The notes: generated from the letters alone by a model not told the origin. Counted from the stretch's first letter, positions 2,397 to 30,543 are shown. The stretch: 45,284 nucleotides of DNA from a virus (IMGVR_UViG_3300045988_113766:1-45284), one strand, 5' to 3'. A program made the numbers and translations.

Positions 2397-2604
2397 TTTC
2401 TTCATTTTCAATAAAATTCTGTACATCTTCATCCTCCTCTGTTTCTTCTGGAATATAAACATCTGTCATTGCTGCCAGATACTGAATTGTTACGTTCTGG
2501 TTTTCAATGGTTTTTTTCTGCTTTTCTACGGTTGCTCTGAGGTTTTCGTCCTCTGCCGCTTCTGCAGGTGTCTGAGTCATTTTTCTTACTTCCATGTTCT
2601 TCAC
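2389..2604 (-). CDS. Hypothetical acidic protein (start uncertain; overlaps the RT 3' end)
   Basis: 71-aa ORF in the same direction as the operon. It overlaps the RT C-terminal tail by about 100 nt. Confidence 0.35.
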   Translation of the reverse strand: MKNMEVRKMTQTPAEAAEDENLRATVEKQKKTIENQNVTIQYLAAMTDVYIPEETEEDEDVQNFIENEENV

Positions 2605-3625
2605 CCTTTCTTAACTGTTTTAAATATTTCTGAGTCCTTTGTTTTACTTTATACGAATTTCCTTTATCAGCATTATTTTCCCAGGAATTGTGATGTTCAT
2701 CTACTTTTTCCGGTTCAAGTTCTCCTCTCTGTGATTTATGAACCATCCTCACAAGAGTTTTTCTTTCATGCTTTACACTATCTGAGTTAAGCGTCATGAT
2801 TATCCTTCCTGTTTCTGTCAGCCGATAGTCGAATCCCAAAAATGTAAATCCTTTTTCAAGCGGTGTTATGTGTGATTTCTTTTCATTTGCTTCCAGCCCG
2901 TATATCTGCAATTGCTTCATTATCTCACCGAAAACTCTCTCAGCCTGTTTTCTTGTTTTAACAAGAATCCAGAAATCATCCATGTATCTGATATTGTATT
3001 TTACATGCAACTGTTCTTTGATGTAATGATCTAATGGATTCAGAAGTGAAATACCGGCAATCTGTACCATTTGAGACCCTGGATTGTATCCGGTTTCTCC
3101 TGCGTACTGGTCTCGTAAAACTCCACACGACATTTCTGTTGTATCCTTATCCGTCAGATTCCTTATTTGCCTTTCTACATCACTGTGCCGCATGTTTAGG
3201 TAGTATCCATGTATGTCAACCTGAACTATCCATCCTTTTGTGCCGTATCTGCAGTAATAATTCCATAGATATTTTTTAACCAGTGCTCTTGCAAAGTCTG
3301 TTCCCTTTCCTGTCTGGCAGGCGCAATTTGAATAAGTGAATCCCTTTGTCATTTGAGGATAAAGAGAATTATCATTAATGCTCCTTTGATATACCCGATC
3401 CTTAAACGGAATACTGAGAGCTTCCCGGCGTTTCGGATATGTTATCAAGACTGTTTTAGGCTTCCCATTCTTCCATGTTCCGTCTTGATGCTGATGTTTC
3501 ATCCGGAGTATATTTTCTTCTCCATTTAACAAAAACGACTTAACTGATGGTTTCCATGTTACTCCATTCTTACATTTCAGCATTGATTCGTATAAACTAT
3601 CATAGCTTGTTATATGATCTTTCAT
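2504..3625 (-). CDS. DGR reverse transcriptase
   Basis: 373 aa. Contains the YMDDFW (YxDD) motif and ...PGSQMVQIAGISLLNPLDHYI..., resembling the DGR-RT GxxxSQ...NPLD signature. Located directly downstream of TR. Confidence 0.9.
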   Translation of the reverse strand: MKDHITSYDSLYESMLKCKNGVTWKPSVKSFLLNGEENILRMKHQHQDGTWKNGKPKTVLITYPKRREALSIPFKDRVYQRSINDNSLYPQMTKGFTYSNCACQTGKGTDFARALVKKYLWNYYCRYGTKGWIVQVDIHGYYLNMRHSDVERQIRNLTDKDTTEMSCGVLRDQYAGETGYNPGSQMVQIAGISLLNPLDHYIKEQLHVKYNIRYMDDFWILVKTRKQAERVFGEIMKQLQIYGLEANEKKSHITPLEKGFTFLGFDYRLTETGRIIMTLNSDSVKHERKTLVRMVHKSQRGELEPEKVDEHHNSWENNADKGNSYKVKQRTQKYLKQLRKGEEHGSKKNDSDTCRSGRGRKPQSNRRKAEKNH

Positions 3626-3790
3626 CTTTTGTGCTTCCGCAGTTTCTCAGTGCTGGCAGGCTTATGTAAGTCACGCACTGTCTCTTTCGATTATCCGCGG
3701 TATTGTTTAGGCTTATGCCAGGGATTTCGGCTCCTTGTCTATATCTTCAAGGCGATCATTGCTATGCAATAACCATAATGCTTTTAGGAA

Positions 3791-3917
3791 GACAATCGGG
3801 GCATACACATTCGAGTTCCATGCGTTCGTGTTGTTGACGTTGCCGGATGTGTTCACATTCATGACGTTGTTAGCGTTGCCGCGGTTAGCCGAACGAGAAA
3901 ACACATTCTGAGGTGTT
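3791..3917 (-). repeat. DGR template repeat (TR); the 3626..3790 spacer probably belongs to the same TR RNA
   Basis: Aligns without gaps to 4432..4558 (offset 641). It is Asn-codon (AAY) rich in the sense strand: NANNVMNVNTSGNVNNTNAWNSNVYAP. Confidence 0.92.
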
Positions 3918-3936
3918 AGCCTACGTCCCATGTAAT

Positions 3937-4368
3937 TTAAGAGTATCTTTCTATGTCAGATTCCCGCCATTTTTTAATATAATTTCTCACTTTTACTGTT
4001 TGTTCTGACCAATATTCTACCCTTTTTCCTTTCAGGTGAAAGAGTGGATGCGCAAGCCCAATCAGTGCAAGTAAGTTGTTACAATCCAGAATCGCCTGAC
4101 GCTGCAGTTTGCTTCTCCAGGCCCATAGCTCTTTCTTATTCTTTTCTGTTACCCGGATATTGTTTGCGGTCCAGGCATTTATATAAATGTCTTTCGCTGT
4201 CCGGATGATATCGTCCGTGAGCGCAGATTGATATTCCGGAAGAAATACCTTTTTATTCTTGCAGATCTGAATCGTGTAGACCGCCAGCTCTCTTGCGTAC
4301 CATACTGCATTTAACTGTCTATTCTGCGGTGTGTCCGGTACATTTCTCTCACCTGCTTTAACTGCCAT
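3937..4368 (-). CDS. avd: Accessory variability determinant (Avd-like four-helix-bundle protein)
   Basis: About 143 aa from the ATG at 4368 (RBS GGAAAGGAAAAG). Helical and basic, positioned between VR and TR as in known DGRs. The ORF-track start at 4392 lies inside the hairpin. Confidence 0.75.
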   Translation of the reverse strand: MAVKAGERNVPDTPQNRQLNAVWYARELAVYTIQICKNKKVFLPEYQSALTDDIIRTAKDIYINAWTANNIRVTEKNKKELWAWRSKLQRQAILDCNNLLALIGLAHPLFHLKGKRVEYWSEQTVKVRNYIKKWRESDIERYS

Positions 4369-4382
4369 TTCTTTTCCTTTCC

Positions 4383-4408
4383 ATCCCTGCATCCGTGGGT
4401 GCAGGGAT
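4383..4408 (-). promoter_or_regulatory. Hairpin immediately 3' of VR (candidate DGR target-recognition hairpin/cruciform)
   Basis: ATCCCTGCA / TGCAGGGAT, a 9-bp stem with an 8-nt loop, 14 nt downstream of the target stop codon. No U-tract follows. Confidence 0.55.
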
Positions 4409-4422
4409 TATTTGATTGCTGA

Positions 4423-5619
4423 TTATACGACGACAAGCGGGGCATACACAACCGAGTTCCATGCGGTCGTGCTGCCGACGATGCCGGATGTGCTCACACC
4501 CATGACGCTGTAAGCGTTGCCGCGGTTAGCCGAACGAGAAAACACAAACTGAGGCGATGTGTGGTTCGCAGCTGAATATCTAATCATAATCGGATAGGTT
4601 TTCCATGGTTCAATCGGTGTTTTGGAATTTGTTCTCCGCTGCCAGTATTCGTGAACTGTTCCCTCCTCTTTGCTCATGTTGACATTCATCTGAGACGCGG
4701 ATGCAAGGAACACTCTGTCGTATGTGATATCTGTCACGCCACCATCATTGACGGTATTCGCAAGGGTAGTTACTTTGACCGTCTTTAATGCTGCCAGCAT
4801 ATCCGCAGGCATTCCGCAGAGGAAACCGTCTTTTGTGGCTAACTGACTCGGCGCAATATCCCAGTCGTCCTGTTTTGTCCACCATTTGCCCTTTGGTTGT
4901 GTTGAATTGAGCCACTGACGGGCCGCTGAGTATTTCCAGCGATTCCAGCCGTATGCTGATTCCTGCATACTGTTAAGATTTCCGTTTCTGGTTGCGTACT
5001 GCATGGTTCCCAGATCTGTTCCGTCTGATCCGGATGTAACTGCCACGGTTTCAATTGTGGTGATTCCGTCTGCAGCGTAAGAGGTTGCTTTCCAGTTGCT
5101 CGGCGCAATGTCCGGCATCTGTGTGAATCCATATACTGATCCGCCTGCAGGTACGGCCTTGGTCAAAGTAAACTGCCAGTATGTGTCTGCTTTTGCATTA
5201 TTTCCCCAATCCTTTTCTAATTTGAGGTGATAAGTTCCTGCTGCCAGTCCATCCGGACAGCGCAAGAATGCACGGTTGCTAAACTGTAATCCGAATGGGG
5301 TTGTGTAATGCGCTTCCAGGAATGTTCCTGAAATGACTTCTCCGTCCTCCAGTTCTACATTTTCAAAATGTGTAACCTGCCACGGGAAATCATATTCCTG
5401 GCCGGCGGCAGTATCTGTCCATTTCTCAAGAATCTGGTCTCCGAAATCAAAAATTTTCTGAGCGTACCCATTTCTGGAAAGCCCGCTGATCTGGTCCCAC
5501 GTTGATATGTTTTCCAGGTTTGCCGCCTGTGTAAATGCCATTGTCTGCAATGCCTGTGAAATTTCTTTCATAGTGCTTTCGCGTGGAAAATTAATGAGTG
5601 TCTGGTCTCCTGTTGCCAT
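4423..5619 (-). CDS. DGR target protein: putative receptor-binding tail fibre protein with a C-terminal variable (C-type-lectin-like) region
   Basis: 398 aa. The C-terminus FSRSANRGNAYSVMGVSTSGIVGSTTAWNSVVYAPLVVV is the VR. It is the last structural gene of the fibre block. Confidence 0.85.
   Translation of the reverse strand: MATGDQTLINFPRESTMKEISQALQTMAFTQAANLENISTWDQISGLSRNGYAQKIFDFGDQILEKWTDTAAGQEYDFPWQVTHFENVELEDGEVISGTFLEAHYTTPFGLQFSNRAFLRCPDGLAAGTYHLKLEKDWGNNAKADTYWQFTLTKAVPAGGSVYGFTQMPDIAPSNWKATSYAADGITTIETVAVTSGSDGTDLGTMQYATRNGNLNSMQESAYGWNRWKYSAARQWLNSTQPKGKWWTKQDDWDIAPSQLATKDGFLCGMPADMLAALKTVKVTTLANTVNDGGVTDITYDRVFLASASQMNVNMSKEEGTVHEYWQRRTNSKTPIEPWKTYPIMIRYSAANHTSPQFVFSRSANRGNAYSVMGVSTSGIVGSTTAWNSVVYAPLVVV
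4432..4558 (-). repeat. DGR variable repeat (VR) at the 3' end of the target gene
   Basis: 17 mismatches to TR over 127 bp. Every one is at a plus-strand T of TR (A in the sense strand). About 37 TR adenines are available. Confidence 0.92.
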
Positions 5620-7535: not shown

Positions 7536-9785
7536 TTAAGTCAAATTGCCTGAGCCTTTATTGTACAAATACTTATCCCTGACTTTGTCGTATAAACATA
7601 ATACTCCGTTATCTTTTTTCACTGGAATAAGATCTGCCACCAATACATCCTCCTGATAAATTTTCGCATAATAGATTTTGCCTTTTAGCCCAACTCCCGC
7701 ATTAGTTCCGTTTTTTGACATATTTCCAACATAAAGTGGACTTGTAAGAGAAAATGAATCAATAGAGTCTGTATCTACAGAAGAACTTCCGAAATTAAAT
7801 GTTGTGCCATTTTGTTTAATTGTCCAATTACCACCCCAAAATGCAGAGGGTTTAGCTGCACTGTCTATTGTTCCTCTAATCGCATAAAAATTATCAGTGC
7901 AAGTATATCCATATTTATATTTATCATCTCTTGCACCGCATATATAAGTTGTTCCAGTGTTTACATACAAACTTACTTCCGTATTAGTATTTTGATCAGG
8001 TAAAATTTCTGTATCGAAATAACAATTTCCATCCAAACTTAAACTTGTAATTTCTATATGATTTTCTGTAATGGATTTTTTATTAATAGTAACAGAACAT
8101 TGCGCTGTGTAATTGCCGTCAAGTGTTGTGACAGTAACAACCGAATGCCCAATTTCTTTTCCAATTATTTTTCCGTTTTCCACAATAACATTTGAATTAT
8201 TTACGCTCCATGTAACATTTTGATTTGTTGCGTAACTTGGGAGTACGGTGGCTACTAATTGTACGGATTCTCCGACTTCCAAGGTAATAGCGTTATGATT
8301 TAATGTAACTCCTGTAACTTTTACAATATCTGGTATATCAGATGCTAATCCATAAGCAATTCCAAGGTTTTGAAGAGTTTTGTCAATTACAGGGCAATAA
8401 TGGGTTCTATAGAATTGTTCATTTGGATGTACTCCATCACCTTTTTTACTATTTGGGTTATATGTATATTTATTTTTGTTTAATTTAGTCATTGCTATTT
8501 GTGCATATTTACGCATATCAAGATACGGCATATTCCATTTTTCACAGATTTCAATCGCTTTTGAATAGATGCTGTCCACGTAAGAATTGTCTTTTGCAAA
8601 ACTGTGTGGAATAATATACAGTTTGACAGTCAATGGGTACGTATCCATGATATACTGCAATGCACTCTCTAATGCTCCGCAGAACGTCCCCGTATTATAC
8701 GAAGCATCATATCCAGATTCGATTGATCCGACTGGAATACTACTATTGATGTCATTAACTCCACCGTCAAAAATGATCGCATCAGCTGCACCAGTGTAAC
8801 TCCTAATCTGCGTTACGATCGGTGTGTGTTCTGGGTTGGATGTAGTGGCAAAGTTCGCACCAGATTCGGCTTTATTAATCCAAGTGGCATCTGGATATTT
8901 TTCTTTTAACGGCTGCACGACGCCGGTGCCTTCTTTCCATCCCCATCCAGCTATGATACTATCTCCAAATGCAACGATTGTCTTTCCTTTGTATGGACTT
9001 TCTGTGACCTCAACATTCGAAGACTCGTTATTTTGCAGTTCTTTCCATGAGCCAAAAGCTGCTCCATTTTTAGTTCGAATGAATGTCCTGCTATCTTCAA
9101 GGCACGTATAGATGTGTACAACACATTTATTGGAAAAACCAACAGAACACGCCATGCCACCAGCGTCAACCGGTACATTTTTCACGCCATGACAGGATAT
9201 CAAATACGCCCTGTTGTCTTCCATATTGTCTAAGTCAGCCAAAACTTCCGTAGAATAAACATGCAAGCCAGTCATGAATGTTTTACTCGTATCCACAGTG
9301 CCAGAACTAGTTCCTGAACCATTTGCGCCTTTTGGAATCCCAAGATTCAGTACAGGATTCTCGGTCGTCCCTGTGATCGATGCAGTGGCAGACTGTCCAG
9401 ATTCTAGTGTATTCACCGTTCCAATTGTGATATTTGGTGTTTTCCCTGTTGACCCTTTCGAACCGTTTCTAACTTGGAATGTGCTTTTTTCGCCGTTCGT
9501 TTTTGTCACGGTGACAATATTTGTACCACCATCTTCTGTCGATGTTGTAGTCTGCTTAACTTCTAGGATGCCAACCCCATCTTTTCCATTACTGCCAGTT
9601 CCAGAACCACCGCTTGAACCAGCACCGCCGGTGCAATTTCTTTTCAAGTAATCTACATCTTCCATTAATTCAGGAATTTTTTCTGCGTTAATGAGCATTC
9701 TCGCAAATTCCTCTTCCGTTCCTGTGTATCCTTTTTCTTTTACGATTGCATACGCGCTTACAGCACCTAAGTCTTCCCACATCAT
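7536..9785 (-). CDS. Tail fibre/spike with an SGNH(GDSL)-type esterase domain and a Big_2 domain
   Basis: 749 aa. G/S-rich collagen-like linker. SGNH blocks FGDSIIAGWG, GGVNDI and DGVHPN. Big_2-like VTGVTLNHNAITLEVGESVQLVATVLP...VTWSV. Confidence 0.75.
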   Translation of the reverse strand: MMWEDLGAVSAYAIVKEKGYTGTEEEFARMLINAEKIPELMEDVDYLKRNCTGGAGSSGGSGTGSNGKDGVGILEVKQTTTSTEDGGTNIVTVTKTNGEKSTFQVRNGSKGSTGKTPNITIGTVNTLESGQSATASITGTTENPVLNLGIPKGANGSGTSSGTVDTSKTFMTGLHVYSTEVLADLDNMEDNRAYLISCHGVKNVPVDAGGMACSVGFSNKCVVHIYTCLEDSRTFIRTKNGAAFGSWKELQNNESSNVEVTESPYKGKTIVAFGDSIIAGWGWKEGTGVVQPLKEKYPDATWINKAESGANFATTSNPEHTPIVTQIRSYTGAADAIIFDGGVNDINSSIPVGSIESGYDASYNTGTFCGALESALQYIMDTYPLTVKLYIIPHSFAKDNSYVDSIYSKAIEICEKWNMPYLDMRKYAQIAMTKLNKNKYTYNPNSKKGDGVHPNEQFYRTHYCPVIDKTLQNLGIAYGLASDIPDIVKVTGVTLNHNAITLEVGESVQLVATVLPSYATNQNVTWSVNNSNVIVENGKIIGKEIGHSVVTVTTLDGNYTAQCSVTINKKSITENHIEITSLSLDGNCYFDTEILPDQNTNTEVSLYVNTGTTYICGARDDKYKYGYTCTDNFYAIRGTIDSAAKPSAFWGGNWTIKQNGTTFNFGSSSVDTDSIDSFSLTSPLYVGNMSKNGTNAGVGLKGKIYYAKIYQEDVLVADLIPVKKDNGVLCLYDKVRDKYLYNKGSGNLT

Positions 9786-10021
9786 ACTATGAGCACCTCC
9801 AGTCTTCCATCTTTCATCCTATAGTTTGCTTTATCTTTACTAACGCATATCAGGTGTCCGTTATGTATTTCAAAATTCATATAATCTCGTAATATTAGCG
9901 GAATATATATGTAGAGATGCCCATTCTTTTTTGTCCAAATACGTACAGTTTCATATTTTGGTTGATGTATTTCAATTGTTTCTTTAGGCTTAAATATTAT
10001 TTTTGCTTCTGCCGCATCCAT
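9782..10021 (-). CDS. Hypothetical protein
   Basis: 79-aa ORF. Its stop overlaps the fibre gene start. RBS TAGGAGATAAA. Confidence 0.45.
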   Translation of the reverse strand: MDAAEAKIIFKPKETIEIHQPKYETVRIWTKKNGHLYIYIPLILRDYMNFEIHNGHLICVSKDKANYRMKDGRLEVLIV

Positions 10022-10029
10022 TTTATCTC

Positions 10030-11352
10030 CTATTTAGCTTCTTTCTTCAACAAATCCCATTCTTTTTCTGTAATTATTTCCAAAGCCCATTTGGAAGGAA
10101 CATGTATTTTCATTCTCTTTGAAATACCATTCTTTCTGTAATACCTGTTCCAGAAGTACGCATTTGCTAAAGCACGCGCTTTATGCATGATGCAGATATA
10201 CGTTGCTCTAGCATCCGGTGTGCCAAAAACCTGATAGTTATATGCGGTGCACCAGGAACACCCCTCTGCAATCGGGCAGTAGAAGCATTCGTCCGTACTC
10301 TGCGTTCTCCGATTAATCTTTTTAAGGCACTCCACGCGGCATTTATGGCAGTCGCATTGACAGATTCCCGCATCTACATCTCCTATACTGTACGGTTCCT
10401 GTTGGCTTCCCAAAGAGCTTTCCATATATCGCAAGCATGGATAAATGATGCCGTCCGGATCAACCGCCAACATTACGCCGTTTCCACCGCACCAGTTTTG
10501 TAAATCGTCTTCTTTCTTTGGGTGAAACAACTCCTCGTTGAACAGTGAACAATAGAATTCTCTTTCAAAATCCATATTATGTTCTAAGAAATAATCCGCA
10601 AGCAATTTCATTTGGCCGTAAAGAGTTGTAGCGTGTATTGGTTTCCACCCATCCTCATAAACACAATTCGCATTTATCTCTGTGTATCCCAGGTTAATCA
10701 TGTGAACAATCGCATCATATATATGCATCACATTCGCCGGTGCAATAGTGATCTTTGAGCCCATGTAATTCCCCTGATTCATCCAGTCTTTTGCTGCAGA
10801 TACCGCCAAATCATAAGAGGGCTGTCCGTCTGGAAAAACGCGGCAAGAATCATGGAGTTCTTTGTTTCCGTCTACCGTTACTGAAAATGACAGTCTGTTC
10901 TTCCACTTTTGCAGTACCATCTGCACTTCCGGTTCGTGATACAAGACCCCATTACTGCAGATTGAAAACATAGTCTTCATAAGCCACGGATGGTTTAATT
11001 CAATCATTTTGTCGATTGTGTAGGTGCAAATTTTATCAATCAGTTTTGCCTCCAGAAGTGGTTCGCCGCCAATAAATTCTATTATTAGCCCAGGCGATTT
11101 CTTGGGATTTATATATTCTTTAACCCCTTTTTCTCCTGACAGTAAAAGATCTATCATCTTTTTTGCGGTTTCAAATTTCATACTGCGTTTTCCTTTGTGG
11201 GTTTGGTAGCAGTATGTACAAGCAAGATTGCAATCATCTGTCACCTGAAATGTCACCGACTGTGTAAGAACTCTTTCTTCTCCCTCTTTCCGCCGGTGTA
11301 ACTCAGGATACAACCTGCTTAATTTATCGCTGTACTGTTCTGCTCTCTTCAT
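10030..11352 (-). CDS. Radical SAM enzyme with a SPASM-type C-terminal auxiliary Fe-S domain (peptide/protein maturase-like)
   Basis: 440 aa. CNLACTYC (CX3CX2C) at residues 41-48, preceded by FQVTDD. C-terminal Cys clusters WCGGNG...DGIIYPC, CQCDCHKCRVEC and CFYCPIAEGCSWC. RBS GAAGGGA. Confidence 0.85.
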   Translation of the reverse strand: MKRAEQYSDKLSRLYPELHRRKEGEERVLTQSVTFQVTDDCNLACTYCYQTHKGKRSMKFETAKKMIDLLLSGEKGVKEYINPKKSPGLIIEFIGGEPLLEAKLIDKICTYTIDKMIELNHPWLMKTMFSICSNGVLYHEPEVQMVLQKWKNRLSFSVTVDGNKELHDSCRVFPDGQPSYDLAVSAAKDWMNQGNYMGSKITIAPANVMHIYDAIVHMINLGYTEINANCVYEDGWKPIHATTLYGQMKLLADYFLEHNMDFEREFYCSLFNEELFHPKKEDDLQNWCGGNGVMLAVDPDGIIYPCLRYMESSLGSQQEPYSIGDVDAGICQCDCHKCRVECLKKINRRTQSTDECFYCPIAEGCSWCTAYNYQVFGTPDARATYICIMHKARALANAYFWNRYYRKNGISKRMKIHVPSKWALEIITEKEWDLLKKEAK

Positions 11353-11680
11353 CTTTTATCCCTTCAATTTTACAATTGCAATGGATTGTAATCTCCATCT
11401 GATTAGAGTCCAGTGGAAGGATCCAACTGTATTTATGTCCTCTCAGTTTTTCCGGAATGTACTTCTGTTCAAGACTGGCAGATGCAGTTTTATATTCAGC
11501 TTCCAGTTCCGCGCCTTTTTTTTGGTAAGCAGCAAATGCTTTGCTTTTAATCATTTCCGGATCGTTTGAATGAGACTCAAGAATCCTTTGAATCACGTCT
11601 TTTGCAAATCCCAGTTCAAAATTTAGACGTTCCAGGTATTCCGCGTCTTTTTTGTCAATTTCAATAATGATTTTTCTCAT
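11324..11680 (-). CDS. Hypothetical protein in the rSAM cluster
   Basis: 118-aa ORF with RBS AGGAGGAGAC. It overlaps the rSAM start by 29 nt. Mostly helical. Confidence 0.5.
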   Translation of the reverse strand: MRKIIIEIDKKDAEYLERLNFELGFAKDVIQRILESHSNDPEMIKSKAFAAYQKKGAELEAEYKTASASLEQKYIPEKLRGHKYSWILPLDSNQMEITIHCNCKIEGIKDEESRTVQR

Positions 11681-11692
11681 GTCTCCTCCTAG

Positions 11693-11707
11693 TGACCGAG
11701 TCGGTCA
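11693..11707. repeat. Palindrome TGACCGAGTCGGTCA, copy 2 (17-bp with flanks)
   Basis: Intergenic, directly upstream of the RBS of gene 11324..11680. Confidence 0.9.
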
Positions 11708-11709
11708 CA

Positions 11710-12018
11710 TTACATTTTGCCAAGTTTGATGATAATCACTTTATTTTTATCTGACATATCTTCAGTTATCGCTTCGATTTTCCATCCCGGAAAGTCTCTT
11801 TTTTCATTTCCGCGCACAAGAATAAAATCCGTGCCGTTCCCGTCATTCGAGATTTTTGCCTTTACTGCGGAGAATGATTCATTTTCGCTCGCGTAAAAGG
11901 TAATAATGCTGTCATAATTTAATTCGTTTCCGTTTCCATCTTTGAACTTCTCGAATGAAAAAGCATTGTTCATACTTTCGATCTGGATTTCCTGTTTGTT
12001 TTTAAGTATTAGTTTCAT
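11710..12018 (-). CDS. Hypothetical beta-rich protein in the rSAM cluster
   Basis: The likely start is ATG at 12018 (MKLILKNKQEIQ...), behind RBS AAGGAGAGAAAGA. The ORF-track start at 12096 overlaps the upstream gene. Confidence 0.5.
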   Translation of the reverse strand: MKLILKNKQEIQIESMNNAFSFEKFKDGNGNELNYDSIITFYASENESFSAVKAKISNDGNGTDFILVRGNEKRDFPGWKIEAITEDMSDKNKVIIIKLGKM

Positions 12019-12038
12019 TCTTTCTCTCCTTAATCTCC

Positions 12039-12680
12039 TTAATACACTGGTGACGATGCTGTTCCATAGCAAGTTCCGGAACAGGTTTTTCCACAATTAT
12101 TTGAGCAATCGTTCGAGCAGCTAGTACTGCATCCGCCGCATTGGCTCTGGCACAAATTAGAACAGCTGTCTTTGCAGGTTGCTTCACATGAATTGTTGCA
12201 TCCTGTCCCGCATGATGTTCCGCATGAGCTGCACCCTGAACATCCAGAGCAAGACTGTGTGCAAGATGCAGTGCAGTTGTCGTCGCATCCAGAGCAATAT
12301 CCGGAGCAGTTTCCAGAGCATCCGGAGCAATTATCGCTACATGAACTTCCACAATGCCCGCTGCAATCTCCAGAACAGTTTGTCGAACACGATGTCCCAC
12401 AGGCAAATCCGCAGCCATTATTGCAAGTATCACCGCAGGAAACAGAACAGCCGGCTGTGCAGTCCATCGCGCATTTTGCCTCGCAATAAATCGTGCAGTC
12501 AGTTTCGCATGCCGCGGAGCAAGTATCCCGGCACACATTTGTGCATGTTCCCGAACATACCGTGCTGCAGTTATGTGAGCAACTAGTTCCGCATCCGCCG
12601 CAATTCCCCGACGCCGTTGTCTGGCAACTGGTTGAACAGCTGGTTCCGCAAGTCGTACAAGCCCTTTCTCTCCCTCCTTT
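12039..12680 (-). CDS. Cys-repeat reading frame continuing directly after an in-frame TAG (213 codons, about 51 Cys, CxxxC periodicity). There is no canonical start before GTG at 12536.
   Basis: My translation after the TAG: KGGRERACTTCGTSCSTSCQTTASGNCGGCGTSCSHNCSTVCSGTCTNVCRDTC...CSGTCYGTASSPVY*. Same frame as 12681..13208. AAAGGAGGGAGAG lies right after the TAG. Confidence 0.55.
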   Translation of the reverse strand, partial: KGGRERACTTCGTSCSTSCQTTASGNCGGCGTSCSHNCSTVCSGTCTNVCRDTCSAACETDCTIYCEAKCAMDCTAGCSVSCGDTCNNGCGFACGTSCSTNCSGDCSGHCGSSCSDNCSGCSGNCSGYCSGCDDNCTASCTQSCSGCSGCSSCGTSCGTGCNNSCEATCKDSCSNLCQSQCGGCSTSCSNDCSNNCGKTCSGTCYGTASSPVY

Positions 12681-13208
12681 CTATGCTTTTGTTGATGTTG
12701 TGCATCCAGATCCGCATGTATGTGAACATTTGCCTGCACATCCTCCTGTGCATCCTCCGCAACCTCCAGAGCACCCATCTGCGCAGGATTTATTGCAATT
12801 GTTGCTACAATTTCCTGTGCAGGAGCTGCAACCCATGCAGGCAGAAATGCAGGACTGTTCGCACAATCCTGTACAGTTTCCCCGGCATCCAGAATTTTCA
12901 GCTGTTTTTGGAACTGCCATCATTTTGTCTGCAAATTTTTCCGCTCTTTCCAGTTCCATTTCCAGAGATGTTCTCTTTTTTCTGAGACTGTTATCCGGAA
13001 GATAATCATTGATCTCCAGTAATGGATCTATAATCTTTCGAATGTGTTCATCCGAAATCTGGCTTACTACTTTTGGTTCCATCATATAGTCATACTCCTG
13101 AGAAGCATATTGCGTGAGCTGACCTCCCATATCTGGCACATCTCTACTAGCCATGACTCTTTTTACTTTTTCTTTGATGCGTATCAACGAATCTGCCGTT
13201 ATGATCAT
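12681..13208 (-). CDS. Protein with a roughly 105-aa non-repetitive N-terminal domain followed by a Cys-every-4th-residue repeat (candidate rSAM substrate)
   Basis: 175 aa. RBS AAGGAGGAAAG. C-terminal part GCRGNCTGLCEQSCISACMGCSSCTGNCSNNCNKSCADGCSGGCGGCTGGCAGKCSHTCGSGC. It ends at TAG (12681..12683). Confidence 0.7.
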   Translation of the reverse strand: MIITADSLIRIKEKVKRVMASRDVPDMGGQLTQYASQEYDYMMEPKVVSQISDEHIRKIIDPLLEINDYLPDNSLRKKRTSLEMELERAEKFADKMMAVPKTAENSGCRGNCTGLCEQSCISACMGCSSCTGNCSNNCNKSCADGCSGGCGGCTGGCAGKCSHTCGSGCTTSTKA

Positions 13209-13221
13209 TTTGCTTTCCTCC

Positions 13222-13788
13222 TTAGACCGCAGATACAGATGTATATGCCGGATTTATGAGGACATAATCTACCGTAACTGTTTCCGTAGCATTTGTTTTT
13301 CCTATAGCAGCCTCGATATATATGTTGGTTCCCTTTGTCATGTTCTCCATATCCAGGATGGTTCCGATGATCTTATATCTGTCATTCGCTTCAAATGCTG
13401 CCGGCGAAATATATATTGTTTTTATAATGTCACCGTTTGCAGAGCCTTTCCGGAATCTCACCCTGATCATATTTTCATTTTTAGAAACATCTGATACCTT
13501 CATTCTTATCATTACTGCATAAGTTCCTAATTTAAGCGACATTCCCACGGAAAAAAGCTGCATATCCGCTACCGAACTGCTCGTTTTACTCAAAACGGTA
13601 TATTCCGCCGCTGTATCTTTTATAGTTGCTTCGCTGGACAGTCTCTTGCCTCCTATATAGAGATTGCTGCCATTTTCAATTCGATACAGAGCATCATCCA
13701 CCTGATCCATCATTTCGTCAAAATGAGCAACATTAAAAAAATCATCATCCTCAGGTTTTAGAAAATTATAATTTTTTGTATATTTCAA
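13222..13788 (-). CDS. Tail fibre-like protein (conserved phage fibre N-terminus)
   Basis: 188 aa. The N-terminus MKYTKNYNFLKPEDDDFFNV... resembles the N-termini of many Firmicute phage fibre/baseplate-attached proteins. Confidence 0.45.
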   Translation of the reverse strand: MKYTKNYNFLKPEDDDFFNVAHFDEMMDQVDDALYRIENGSNLYIGGKRLSSEATIKDTAAEYTVLSKTSSSVADMQLFSVGMSLKLGTYAVMIRMKVSDVSKNENMIRVRFRKGSANGDIIKTIYISPAAFEANDRYKIIGTILDMENMTKGTNIYIEAAIGKTNATETVTVDYVLINPAYTSVSAV

Positions 13789-14327
13789 TCAAATTTCGCC
13801 TCCTCATTTCGTAGCTGATGATAAGTTTTTGTTGACATCTGTTTATAAGTAAATGGTTTAAATACTTTGTACTGGTTGTACCTTAAAATGATTGACAGAC
13901 CATAATCCAAAGGGATCATCTCTTCTAAGAGATTTTCTATCGCATTAATCATATAGCTTCTCGTTACTTCCACCTGACATGTAACTGTCTTTTGGTCCAG
14001 ATCTATCGTAAGAATATAATTCCTCAATCCAAGAGTTGCATCAAGTTTTTGCCTGAGTGTCGTTTCCGTGTACATGGCGCTAGACCACCATCTCAGTAAA
14101 ACTTCCATTCTGCGATCCTCTAACGTCGCGGTATCCAATGGAGCAATTTTTAAAATCCTTTCTCGATGCGCAATTCCTGATTCCTCGGATGTTTTTATTG
14201 TTATGTCATTGTCAATCTCATCAAGATGTCTCTCGAATACTTCGCCTACCTTATCACCGGCTTCTACTGTCGCCTTAACCTCACGGATATTTATCACTAC
14301 ATCCGGATATTCCACTTTTATGTGCAT
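13785..14327 (-). CDS. XkdU-like baseplate protein (DUF2313-like)
   Basis: 180 aa, positioned after the baseplate J-like gene as in PBSX. Overlapping start/stop. Confidence 0.55.
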   Translation of the reverse strand: MHIKVEYPDVVINIREVKATVEAGDKVGEVFERHLDEIDNDITIKTSEESGIAHRERILKIAPLDTATLEDRRMEVLLRWWSSAMYTETTLRQKLDATLGLRNYILTIDLDQKTVTCQVEVTRSYMINAIENLLEEMIPLDYGLSIILRYNQYKVFKPFTYKQMSTKTYHQLRNEEAKFD

Positions 14328-15370
14328 GTAATCTCTCCTTTGACCGGCACGGAGCCGTCCGTGATCTGCAGATTCTTCTCAGCTCCATTGATCTTTGTTC
14401 CGGCAACATCGAGTATACCCGTTATATTTATCAGAGCAGCTTCTATCTGCAGGATCCTCACAATGATCGTTTTGCTGTCTTCCCATTTCTTTCTGAGACT
14501 GAGCAGATAATTATCCACTGCCTGATTTATGTAGCTTTTCAAAGCTTCTGGACTGTATCCGGACTCGCAGGTTATAGTTGTTTCTATATTTACCACCGTT
14601 TCTTTTACTCCTATAACAGTGACTCGGTGCCCGATCGGAGCAAATCCTTCCCCTTCTCCGCTGTTTACAATAGGATCAACTGCTGTCTGGGCTGCTGATA
14701 TGACCTCTTCCGAAGGTGTTCTGTAATCCTGCCCGATGATAGTTGCTTTGATTCTGTCAGAAGGCGCTGAAACACGTTCCAGTTTGCATCCATACACTCC
14801 ACTCAGCTCTTTGAGTCTGCTTTTATAATATTCACGGTTTCCAGCGAATCCGCGATAGTTATATGTCGCCATAACTCTGGCCCGATAGGTTTCTGTTTCC
14901 TCCTGATCGGTTCCTTCCAGTGTGCATTTGATGATCTTTCCCCATTCAAATCCTTCCACATATTCGATTGGGTCTAAGTCACCCATGACATGGTTTGGTT
15001 CTGCACCAGGAGTATCGCATCCTAGCCGATATGTGTGATTTTCTTCACTGATCACATTGAATACCGTATAGTTATATTCATCCAGATTCCAACGTGATCC
15101 CGCCGGGACAGGACAATTAAACTGTGCTGTAAATTCTGCATATGTTGCCTGGTTGATATAGCAGCCCCTGTCATTTCCATTTCTGATCAGATGTTCCAGG
15201 TCAGCAGTATCTGTATACATATTCTGCTCCAAACCAGCCAACAACAGATATGCTTCTTCCAATCTTACCGCCTGTTTTGCGCAAGCATTAAAGATCAGGC
15301 TTCCCTCAGATGTGTCTATGTCATCCGGCATATCTTCCATCATGGTCCGCATGATCGTTTCATAAGTCAT
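14318..15370 (-). CDS. Baseplate J-like protein (XkdT-like)
   Basis: 350 aa. N-terminus MTYETIMRTMMEDMPDDIDTSEGSLIFNA..., typical of the baseplate J family. Synteny supports the call. Confidence 0.7.
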   Translation of the reverse strand: MTYETIMRTMMEDMPDDIDTSEGSLIFNACAKQAVRLEEAYLLLAGLEQNMYTDTADLEHLIRNGNDRGCYINQATYAEFTAQFNCPVPAGSRWNLDEYNYTVFNVISEENHTYRLGCDTPGAEPNHVMGDLDPIEYVEGFEWGKIIKCTLEGTDQEETETYRARVMATYNYRGFAGNREYYKSRLKELSGVYGCKLERVSAPSDRIKATIIGQDYRTPSEEVISAAQTAVDPIVNSGEGEGFAPIGHRVTVIGVKETVVNIETTITCESGYSPEALKSYINQAVDNYLLSLRKKWEDSKTIIVRILQIEAALINITGILDVAGTKINGAEKNLQITDGSVPVKGEITCT

Positions 15371-15374
15371 GTCT

Positions 15375-15776
15375 TCAAACCTTTATCTCCACCTCCCCGT
15401 CTCCAAGTTCAGTGATCAATGAAAAAGTAAGCGTTATCTTTTCATCATTTTTTGTACAGGAAAAGTTCTCAATTCCCATAATATACGGATTTTTAGTCAG
15501 GCATTCTTCCGTCATTCGTTCCAATTCTGAGTCTGTCAGCTCGACTGAATAAGTTTTTCCAACAAGATTTTCATATTCCTGGCCATAGCCATCTGAATAG
15601 ATATAATACCGATACCGCGCTATCTGCAGTGCCAGCCATGCCCATACAAGAAGCGCATCATATCCTTCGACAACTTTTCCAGAAAGCTGACCTGTTTCAA
15701 AATCAATGCCATATTCCCGTGGAATATACAGGCTCTCTTCGGCTTCTTCTTCACTTTCCACGAAAGGAAACATCAT
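15375..15776 (-). CDS. XkdS-like baseplate wedge protein (DUF2634-like)
   Basis: 133 aa. Called on synteny and size. Confidence 0.55.
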   Translation of the reverse strand: MMFPFVESEEEAEESLYIPREYGIDFETGQLSGKVVEGYDALLVWAWLALQIARYRYYIYSDGYGQEYENLVGKTYSVELTDSELERMTEECLTKNPYIMGIENFSCTKNDEKITLTFSLITELGDGEVEIKV

Positions 15777-20851: not shown

Positions 20852-20906
20852 CTGTTTTGACGGGTCGCTGAAATCATCTATTAACTTAACAACTGCTGCA
20901 ACCGTC

Positions 20907-21083
20907 TTACCTGCCCTTGTTTTTCATCTCCTCTTTTAAGTCTTGTATTTCCTGTTTCAAAAAAGCGCGGGTGATTAATCGTTCACCCGCGCCCATATTG
21001 TAATATTTCGATGGCTTCCATTTTTTCAGGCGGAACAATGCGTAAGCAACGCTTGCTTCGCTGTCCACCTTTATAAGTTTTTT
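20907..21083 (-). CDS. -1 frame extension of the tail assembly chaperone (the T part of a G/GT-type pair)
   Basis: The -1 frame is open from the slippery site to TAA at 20907: ...KKLIKVDSEASVAYALFRLKKWKPSKYYNMGAGERLITRAFLKQEIQDLKEEMKNKGR*. Confidence 0.6.
   Translation of the reverse strand, partial: KKLIKVDSEASVAYALFRLKKWKPSKYYNMGAGERLITRAFLKQEIQDLKEEMKNKGR
20959..20992 (-). terminator. Strong intrinsic-terminator-like hairpin plus U-tract inside the chaperone extension, upstream of the tape measure gene
   Basis: Minus sense: GCGCGGGTGA-ACGATTAA-TCACCCGCGC followed by TTTTTTG. A 10-bp GC-rich stem. Confidence 0.5.
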
Positions 21084-21475
21084 ACTTCTTCTTCAGCGTC
21101 TTCTCCAAGTCCTGAGAGCTTTACGATTTCTGATGCAATGCTTCCAGTTTCCATTCCGAACAGAATCGCCGCAAGATCCTTTGGCGTAGAAGCCCCAAAA
21201 TGTTCCATCAATTTCTGATCAGTCAGACATGGATCCACGACACCGTATACACAGCACATTAAATTGAAATCATATGTGGCATTCATGTCACGGTTTCCCT
21301 TTTTGTCATACAACATGGCCTGAAGGGTATTGTATCTTTTCCCTGATAATTCTCTGATCGTAATCTCTGCATCTTCGCCTACCAGTTTGGCCAGTTTCTT
21401 TGATTTAATCTTTTTTGTCTCTTTTTCCGTGGCTTTTGTTTTATCTACACTGAGTAATTTTTCAATTAAATTCAT
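21071..21475 (-). CDS. Tail assembly chaperone (XkdN-like)
   Basis: 134 aa, acidic C-terminus, located between the tube and tape measure genes. Confidence 0.7.
   Translation of the reverse strand: MNLIEKLLSVDKTKATEKETKKIKSKKLAKLVGEDAEITIRELSGKRYNTLQAMLYDKKGNRDMNATYDFNLMCCVYGVVDPCLTDQKLMEHFGASTPKDLAAILFGMETGSIASEIVKLSGLGEDAEEEVKNL
21077..21083 (-). promoter_or_regulatory. Candidate -1 programmed ribosomal frameshift heptamer A_AAA_AAC
   Basis: The zero frame reads GTA AAA AAC TTA TAA, so the heptamer fits X_XXY_YYZ two codons before the chaperone stop. Confidence 0.6.
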
Positions 21476-30391: not shown

Positions 30392-30462
30392 TAGCGGGAG
30401 ACGGATTCGAACCGCCATTCCAGGCTAAGGAGGCCTGTAAGTTTCCGTTACTTTATCCCGCG
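30392..30462 (-). tRNA. tRNA-Arg-like (anticodon CCT), atypical
   Basis: Hand-folded cloverleaf. T arm GGCGG-TTCGAAT-CCGTC. Anticodon arm CAGGC-CTCCTTA-GCCTG. A 4-bp D stem with GG in the loop. Oddities: a C1-U72 mismatch and U at position 37. Confidence 0.6.
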
Positions 30463-30469
30463 GTAATTA

Positions 30470-30543
30470 TGGACATTCTGAGATTCGAACTCAGGACCGT
30501 CCGGTTATGAGCCGGATGCTCTGACCAGCTGAGCTAAATGTCC
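30470..30543 (-). tRNA. tRNA-Met or tRNA-Ile2 (anticodon CAT)
   Basis: Clean cloverleaf. Acceptor GGACATT/AATGTCC. D arm TAGCTCAGCTGGTCAGAGCA. Anticodon loop CTCATAA. T arm CTGAG-TTCGAAT-CTCAG. Confidence 0.85.

Follow-up and report, generated by a model that had tools for sequence, protein, structure and literature searches.

The closest catalogued relative of the locus described here is the CXXX-repeat system, which comprises a radical S-adenosylmethionine (rSAM) maturase family (TIGR04115), a repeat-protein profile (TIGR04114/PF27846), and a model for Syntrophobotulus paralogs (TIGR04117); in its targets, too, every fourth residue is Cys and the spacers are small or polar, and the genes for enzyme and target likewise adjoin and are co-directional. 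PapB, QhpD, and the SCIFF maturase all form Cys thioethers. PapB acts on repeated Cys-X3-acceptor motifs of short peptides, and PapB-type enzymes recognise a leader. QhpD installs several Cys thioethers in QhpC, a protein that stays in a functional complex and is not secreted; this pair is a precedent for a cross-linked structural protein. PapB, the maturase of the ranthipeptide freyrasin, is likewise an rSAM/SPASM enzyme and makes thioether macrocycles (PMC12373016). Here, we analyse the viral DNA stretch IMGVR_UViG_3300045988_113766 (45,284 nt, hereafter the window), which encodes on its minus strand an rSAM/SPASM enzyme together with two Cys-repeat proteins, CysA and CysB, and small proteins between tail genes. 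We lean, with little more than even confidence, towards a phage-borne CXXX-repeat rSAM maturation system with a thioether-stapled, tail-associated product. Full-text literature searches found no paper on the CXXX-repeat system, on TIGR04115, or on phage rSAM tail systems; the statement in a preliminary description of the window that no account of such a virion-maturation system was known stands as regards papers, although the family is catalogued.

By profile match, the 440-aa enzyme (10030..11352, minus strand, as are all cassette genes) belongs clearly to TIGR04115, which bears the title "radical SAM peptide maturase, CXXX-repeat target family". It scores 580.9 bits (cutoff 350, E = 1.2e-174), with residues 30–400 on positions 1–359 of the 359-position profile, and also matches phrog_1802 (264.6 bits). 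The runner-up profiles stay below their cutoffs: PapB (NF047865), the second-best family, reaches 173.6 bits (cutoff 340; residues 31–379), QhpD 105.9 bits (453), the SCIFF maturase TIGR03974 99.7 bits (425), and anSME TIGR03942 44.7 bits (349). The comparison with rSAM/SPASM subfamily profiles that had been proposed as a check hence places the enzyme in the CXXX-repeat family and not with SCIFF, anSME, or PapB. The preliminary description had pointed to a repeat/rSAM family named ACGX; such a catalogued system exists, under the name CXXX-repeat (TIGR04115), and ACGX is absent among the best 25 of the 59 NCBIfam matches.

The radical SAM motif C41-x3-C45-x2-C48 and the seven Cys of the SPASM layout (C288, G301-x4-C306, C356-x2-C359-x5-C365-x2-C368, C387) are invariant in an alignment of 10 homologues at 35–79% identity, so that the CX3CX2C motif and the SPASM-type C-terminal clusters reported earlier are borne out by ten invariant Cys. 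The closest solved structure is CteB (SCIFF, thermocellin; 5WGG; E = 1.6e-19, 73 bits), the rSAM core and SPASM being common to both. CteB carries an N-terminal recognition element (RRE) for RiPPs (peptides made on the ribosome and modified after translation), ~90 aa long and absent from the window enzyme: residue 28 of the query aligns to CteB residue 94, where the alignment begins, and the enzyme therefore appears to lack an N-terminal RRE. Many close homologues (P0036, P0037, P0043, P0060–P0062, P0067, P0071, and others; 549–768 aa, 61–71% identical to the window enzyme) carry inserted intein/Hint and homing-endonuclease domains.

CysA (12681..13208, 175 aa, TAG stop at 12681–12683) consists of a conserved, mostly helical N-terminal domain of ~105 aa followed by period-4 Cys repeats, with 17 Cys at residues 108–169 (Cys–Cys spacing of 4 residues in 13 intervals and of 3 residues in three), exactly the number counted by hand before. 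The repeats open with the conserved motif SGCRGNCTGLC, and 42 aligned sequences all have C108, C112, G114, and C116. Past the TAG, the CysA frame stays open for 212 codons with 51 Cys (spacing 4 in 41 intervals, 3 in eight, and 8 in one); of these 212 residues, 183 are Cys, Ser, Gly, Thr, Asn, Ala, or Asp, in agreement with the earlier count of about 51 Cys separated almost only by G/S/T/N/D/A. This region holds CysB (12039..12665; ~208 aa, 51 Cys), a protein with a Cys content of 24%. Both repeat-protein genes lie within ~1.9 kb upstream of the rSAM gene.

The search of the repeat proteins against repeat profiles is positive for relatives and stays below the cutoff in the window itself: at a cutoff of 20 bits for TIGR04114/PF27846, the window CysA scores 11.2 bits and the window CysB has no NCBIfam match, while the homologue of CysB in locus L001 scores 31.4 bits, and protein P0121, 89% identical, carries PF27846. 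CysB also scores 44.5 bits against phrog_6085. Structure prediction, likewise suggested beforehand, gives a helical N-domain of moderate confidence and no confident model of the repeats: in the AlphaFold2 (AF2) model of CysA, the predicted local distance difference test score (pLDDT) is mostly 65–88 in the N-domain and 31–48 in the repeats. The failure on the repeats fits a fold that depends on modification. Fold searches with the CysA model yield no significant match in the PDB and only uncharacterised gut-virome homologues in BFVD, and no fusion of the Cys-repeat domain to known fibre domains is seen among 53 homologues. Many phages combine the N-domain with a long repeat region in a single protein, 340–670 aa in length and with up to 145 Cys. 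Single Cys-repeat proteins of 477–669 aa with 90–145 Cys (L054, 5120–7126; L023, 7861–9291; L040, 8160–9671) are among the most Cys-rich long open reading frames (ORFs) that we encountered.

The 118-aa protein (11324..11680) is encoded directly ahead of the enzyme, and the last 29 nt of its gene extend over the rSAM start, an overlap that points to translational coupling of the two. Its AF2 model (pLDDT 86) shows a beta-strand, a helical hairpin, and a beta-hairpin; it has no Pfam, NCBIfam, or PHROG match and no PDB fold match with E < 1. The 102-aa protein (11710..12018), an accessory gene product with no function assigned, has no family match in Pfam, NCBIfam, and PHROG scans, and is restricted to close relatives; an iterative hidden Markov model search detects it in one other locus. 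Of the "two small unknown proteins" of the preliminary description, both ORFs stand; the 118-aa protein proves to be a core member of the system, and the 102-aa protein is lineage-specific.

For comparison, we used 80 loci from different species, mostly Lachnospiraceae, Oscillospiraceae, and other Clostridia, with rSAM enzymes 38–79% identical to that of the window; the whole rSAM family numbers 3858 proteins at E <= 1e-30. Cultured candidate carriers include Blautia wexlerae, Anaerolentibacter hominis CSJ-1, Neglectibacter timonensis SN17, Eubacterium pyruvativorans i6, Desnuesiella massiliensis, and Anaerobacterium chartisolvens DSM 27016. In ~70 of the 80 loci, the rSAM gene has a CxxxC-repeat ORF no farther than ~4 kb away and on its own strand, so the pairing with Cys repeats is not due to chance. 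The CysA N-domain is found in 72 of the loci, a homologue of the 118-aa protein adjoins the rSAM gene in 68 (it is also beside the rSAM gene in L008), and 64 have both. Judged from this conservation, the core is three genes, encoding the Cys-repeat protein with its 105-aa N-domain, the ~100-aa partner, and the rSAM enzyme; the 102-aa gene, a 79-aa gene downstream of the enzyme, and a separate CysB are restricted to some lineages. The three-gene core with its ~100-aa partner, the 105-aa N-domain of the target, and the location in phage tail modules are unlike the catalogued description of the CXXX-repeat system, from which the window lineage further differs by an extra, leaderless repeat protein with the apparent start codon AGG.

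Baseplate_J is encoded upstream on the same strand in 35 of the 80 loci, and at least one window-type tail marker is present in 43. Loci without window-type markers show siphovirus families (DUF6558/Dit, SPP1_Dit, Tal, Prophage_tail, BppU_N, Sipho_Gp37) along with capsid, portal, and amidase genes; a few loci without tail markers also show host genes, presumably past the prophage ends. A tail-fibre N-terminal motif was tried as a further context marker and dropped as too rare. In close relatives, the tape measure and baseplate genes come first, then CysA, CysB, the small proteins, and rSAM, and after these the fibres, holin, and endolysin. In MT835573, a human faecal phage contig, the same trio, with an rSAM enzyme 36% identical, lies between tail-fibre genes, and at least 562 IMG/VR contigs encode an rSAM relative. 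The co-occurrence of the rSAM enzyme and Cys repeats in tail modules of prophages, for which a search had been proposed, is thus found, and it recurs across different tail types. As far as gene content tells, this position inside tail and tail-fibre modules of prophages with different tail types is new for the CXXX-repeat system. Neither the cassette nor the CCU tRNA gene discussed below has a match in DNA similarity to GenBank phages.

In the window, transcription runs through CysA, CysB, the 102-aa gene, the 118-aa gene, the rSAM gene, the 79-aa gene (9782..10021, seen only in close relatives), and the gene of a tail fibre (749 aa; 7536..9785) that combines GDSL esterase and Big_2 domains. 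The cassette genes are co-directional and densely packed in the late operon, with overlapping stops and starts. Upstream lie genes for a 188-aa protein of the baseplate group (13222–13788), a 180-aa tail protein (13785–14327; phrog_521, with counterparts in the near-identical loci L005 and L092 that match Phage_Mu_Gp48), and Baseplate_J (14318–15382), all on the minus strand; further upstream follow genes for a sheath initiator, for DUF2577 and YQBQ/CHAP proteins, and for the tape measure, which together identify a contractile-tail late operon. The four elements first described therefore lie where they had been placed, on the minus strand, between baseplate genes and an esterase tail fibre, and the proposed substrate/maturase pair of a phage, within its late tail operon, is upheld by the conservation of the pairing among relatives. 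The gene arrangement indicates that this maturase–substrate–partner unit is conserved and expressed from the phage late operon. Family scans of the window and the relative loci find no exporter or leader protease family among the cassette neighbours, and no immunity gene conserved near the cassette is found in the relative loci or in MT835573. The flanking genes are tail, fibre, and lysis genes. No PqqD-like RRE is fused to the maturase, which has no N-terminal domain, or recognisable beside it, where the partner has no match; in both respects the locus departs from a canonical RiPP locus.

In the mechanism that we propose, two substrates would be made late in infection: CysA, with an N-terminal recognition domain and CxxxC repeats, and CysB, almost pure repeat, which would be translated from its own ribosome-binding site at AGG, probably by an initiator-like tRNA(CCU). 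The 118-aa partner probably presents or chaperones the substrate for the RRE-less enzyme, and the 105-aa N-domain and the 118-aa protein may together provide substrate recognition in place of an RRE. The rSAM cluster and two auxiliary Fe–S clusters would turn Cys thiols into intramolecular thioether (S–C) cross-links along the repeats, giving, by the example of the nearest characterised families, a densely stapled, protease-resistant rod or knot. Thioether chemistry is suggested because PapB, QhpD, and SCIFF are the nearest families and CteB is the nearest structure. The product would most likely be part of the virion, associated with tail or fibre, or else a factor in assembly, and not a secreted peptide; we hold this with moderate confidence because the baseplate/fibre position recurs, the genes are tightly packed, exporter, protease, and immunity genes are lacking, and the substrates have the size of proteins. 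The cross-linked or metal-loaded virion component put forward in the preliminary description is thus plausible, being favoured by the genomic position and by the lack of an exporter or protease.

Several observations weigh against this mechanism. As to chemistry, the CXXX-repeat family is defined by models alone, and the repeats are without the Asp/Glu acceptor of PapB and QhpD: the PapB acceptor is Asp/Glu at Cys+4, whereas in CysB this residue is Cys in 41 of the 50 intervals, with Asp/Glu a minority within the spacers, so the Cys-X3-Asp/Glu motif of PapB-type substrates does not describe it and Asp/Glu cannot be the acceptor as in PapB and QhpD. The QhpD/QhpC precedent is also unlike the window in that it concerns another family, a housekeeping periplasmic enzyme subunit, Asp/Glu acceptors, and a substrate with no repeats. 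The possibility that the 118-aa protein is a PqqD-like RRE was considered and is unsupported, with no family match and no fold match. As to the virion, the fold searches in the PDB and BFVD link CysA to no known virion protein, and the GenBank phage collection holds no cultured phage with the system, only uncultured "Bacteriophage sp." contigs. The CysA N-domain occurs with both myovirus- and siphovirus-type tails, which fits a maturase-recognition (leader-like) domain better than baseplate attachment; on the comparison of loci, it tracks the maturase and not the tail type, and implies nothing on virion attachment. Finally, tail-fibre regions are often sites of cargo genes and hot spots of recombination.

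The last two points, along with the place of the enzyme among RiPP maturase families, would also be expected if the cassette were cargo, a "moron" RiPP in which the CysA N-domain is a long leader cleaved in the style of NHLP and the Cys-rich core is released at lysis or from lysogens, outside the virion. We consider this unlikely, and equally so its extension in which the released core is a bacteriocin, metal chelator, or signalling peptide benefiting phage or host: a leader protease, exporter, and immunity gene are not conserved nearby, the substrates (175–669 aa) are far above typical RiPPs, the genes are set in a tightly packed co-directional late operon with overlapping stops and starts, and the baseplate/fibre position recurs in different tail types.

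The tail-associated, thioether-stapled product would draw on CysB as well as CysA, and the expression of CysB would involve a second feature of this phage group. The preliminary description had the CysA frame continuing past the TAG; instead, CysB appears to be a separate cistron that has a Shine–Dalgarno (SD) sequence of its own and starts at AGG. In the window, the SD AAGGAGGG (~12672–12679) precedes AGG at 12663–12665, in frame with CysA. Relatives with the same split architecture always have an SD and start of their own for CysB (n = 99: ATG in 92, TTG in five, GTG in two), and the CysB frame relative to CysA varies among them. The window has the layout of these relatives, AAAGGAGGG, 7–8 nt, the start codon, and then GCT TGT (Ala-Cys), with AGG as the codon. 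Three assemblies obtained independently and sharing 99% identity with the window have the same AGG, which also occurs in a sister clade of ~29 IMG/VR contigs (rSAM ~83% identical), where SD-N8-AGG-GCT-TGT is kept, spacer codons vary, CysB is intact (224 aa, 54–55 Cys), and the CysA stop is TAA where the window has TAG. A sequencing error at the CysB start was rejected on the recurrence of AGG in these assemblies and contigs. Readthrough or recoding of TAG was rejected as the source of CysB on the other frames of the relatives with their own SD and ATG, on the TAA of the sister clade, on the use of TAG to terminate eight other window genes, and on the lack of a suppressor tRNA in the window. 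Compared with the near-identical assemblies, CysB has three synonymous and no nonsynonymous differences; since the AGG is shared, the stops differ, and the changes are synonymous, readthrough is unlikely and CysB looks maintained.

Ten late-gene sites of the window, all on the minus strand, have this SD–AGG arrangement: portal (27642), ClpP-like protease (26387), capsid (25692), gp10-like (24009), sheath (23011), tube (21919), DUF2577 (16132), Baseplate_J (putative start at 15382), CysB (12665), and, from a looser scan with the SD ~10 nt upstream, the tape measure (20917). Scanning for a strong SD, 5–10 nt, and then a codon upstream of the first canonical start gives in the window ATG 13, GTG 1, TTG 3, and AGG 10, with AGA 0, GAG 0, GGA 1, GGG 0, and AAG 0; the background, 1.28 Mb of other loci, has ATG 444, AGG 58, and the five other purine codons together 309. 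As AGG itself looks like an SD sequence, the other purine codons serve as the control, against which AGG is in strong excess (window 10 vs 1, background 58 vs 309; Fisher p = 1.9e-7).

Individual genes show the same trend. In the tail tube, positions 4–139 of the 139-position Pfam model PF09393 align to residues 5–140 of the AGG-started protein, while the first canonical start is residue 19; since the alignment begins at residue 5, the domain needs residues upstream of any canonical start. Relatives start Baseplate_J with ATG TTT GAA GAA ATG ACT, and the window has AGG TTT GAA GAC ATG ACT. Across the ten sites, the aligned codon of relatives is AGG in 129 cases, ATG in 19, and GTG in one, but Arg codons other than AGG do not occur (AAG appears twice, both times in an unreliable alignment at 68% identity), whereas internal AGG codons of the same genes are swapped for other Arg codons in 103 of 249 cases. 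The 22-codon upstream extension of the tape measure differs from L005 by six synonymous changes and one nonsynonymous change. An unrelated phage with a divergent copy of the CCU tRNA has AGGAGG-N7-AGG before a 406-codon ORF. If AGG is the start, the window capsid would begin with (f)Arg/Met-NKKLLELL, and NNYTPDRV would follow the first residue of the tube.

The tRNA with the anticodon CCU, which reads AGG, is encoded on the minus strand at 30392–30462, just upstream of the late operon, and adjoins an elongator-type tRNA-Met(CAU) (30470–30543). Its A20, C35, U36, and A73 fit ArgRS identity. The described determinants of initiator tRNAs are the lack of 1:72 pairing (the primary formyltransferase determinant), A11:U24, and three consecutive G–C pairs at the foot of the anticodon stem (PMC4611024). 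In the CCU tRNA, the acceptor stem reads CGCGGGA/UCCCGC, where C1 faces U72 without pairing and A73 is the discriminator; this C1×U72 opposition is seen in 40 near-identical copies and in the divergent copies of L235, L277, and L314. The D stem AAGU/ACUU has A11:U24, whereas G1:C72 and C11:G24 are found in the adjoining tRNA-Met and in L044's host-type tRNA-Arg(CCU). Of the three pairs in the anticodon stem, G29:C41, G30:C40, and C31:G39, the last is inverted, and the L235 copy keeps one of the three; in general, divergent copies in other phages keep C1×U72 and A11:U24 and not every G–C pair. The anticodon is CCU and not the CAU of initiators. Across the 40 copies the acceptor stem is invariant, and the T stem shows a compensatory change. 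The anticodon loop of the window copy is CUCCUUA, with U37 where tRNAs usually have a purine; L235 and L277 have A37.

A loose pattern search for initiator-like CCU tRNAs returned mostly chance matches, with only four further candidates passing the ARAGORN filter, and the joint occurrence of the CCU tRNA and the AGG clade lacks phylogenetic independence. Recoding of late genes through phage-encoded tRNAs is known, in the form of stop-codon recoding. In the literature, we found no natural non-AUG initiator tRNA, only engineered ones: engineered initiator tRNA bodies with a changed anticodon (amber, tRNA(AAC)) start at the matching codon (PMC11744186; bioRxiv 10.1101/524249). The window tRNA differs from these in being natural and phage-encoded, in having CCU for a sense codon, and in being matched by ~10 SD-AGG late-gene starts. 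Taken together, the sequence features suggest phage-programmed initiation at AGG by the phage's own putative initiator-like tRNA(CCU). We judge it somewhat likelier to be right than wrong that this gut prophage group has recoded late-gene initiation via tRNA(CCU) at SD-AGG, including portal, protease, capsid, sheath, tube, tape measure, baseplate, and CysB, and that its rSAM enzyme builds a thioether-stapled tail component. In that reading, virion-protein synthesis would depend on the phage's own tRNA, which would read the AGG starts of the late genes.

The contrary view is that CysB is an unexpressed, start-dead remnant and the other SD-AGG sites are coincidental purine-rich sites, or that CysB arises by rare TAG readthrough as a fusion with CysA. 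With the normal initiator tRNA, AGG serves very poorly as a start, and it resembles an SD sequence; CysA and CysB share a frame, interrupted by one stop codon, and fused CysA–CysB architectures exist in other phages. Against this stand the maintenance of SD-AGG at 8-nt spacing ahead of an intact CysB in the sister clade while spacer codons vary, the purely synonymous divergence of CysB, the excess of AGG at SD-start positions, the tail tube domain, and the ATG/AGG swap at the same Baseplate_J codon; readthrough is further opposed by the change of stop between TAA and TAG, which speaks against a conserved readthrough signal. We regard this view as improbable.

Least probable is that the Cys-repeat proteins bind metal or Fe–S clusters in the manner of metallothionein, the rSAM enzyme acting elsewhere or needing them only as a cluster or redox donor and no thioethers being formed: the high Cys content of CysB with its Gly/Ser/Thr spacers resembles metal-binding proteins and the repeats may be unfoldable in AF2 for want of a ligand, but the family-wide co-occurrence of repeat protein, N-domain, partner, and SPASM maturase is the signature of a substrate and its enzyme, and the NCBIfam curators model a target/maturase pair.

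Returning to the start codons, CysB is missed by gene callers because it has no canonical start; they give a spurious, out-of-frame ORF of 245–258 aa in its place (L089, L090, L091; window 12002–12778, minus strand). In this phage group, the same problem has probably led to truncated N-termini in the annotation of further genes, among them capsid, tube, and portal. A 219-nt gap (20852–21070, minus strand) separates a tail assembly chaperone-like gene (21071–21475) from the first canonical start of the tape measure, and in it an ATG in another frame precedes A AAA AAC, which may be the slippery site at which the usual chaperone frameshift takes place.

Elsewhere in the window, a diversity-generating retroelement occupies 2504–5619 on the minus strand, with the reverse transcriptase at 2504–3625, the template repeat (TR) at 3779–3913, and the variable repeat (VR) at 4420–4554. 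The RVT_1 reverse transcriptase is paired with a 135-nt TR/VR in which 16 of the 19 mismatches are at template adenines, and the target is the C-terminus of a 398-aa DUF6273 protein, likely a receptor-binding protein. The relatives L001–L004 also have an RVT_1 gene downstream of the fibres.

The CXXX-repeat rSAM family is abundant, and the three-gene unit in tail modules gives it a concrete setting and testable substrates. If the proposed reading is true, a radical-SAM cross-linked virion protein would be a new route of particle building in anaerobes and a source of hyper-stable scaffolds. The AGG starts, if true, would explain the mis-annotation of these phages by gene callers, and an initiator-like tRNA that occurs naturally and reads a sense codon would represent a new form of viral control over translation.

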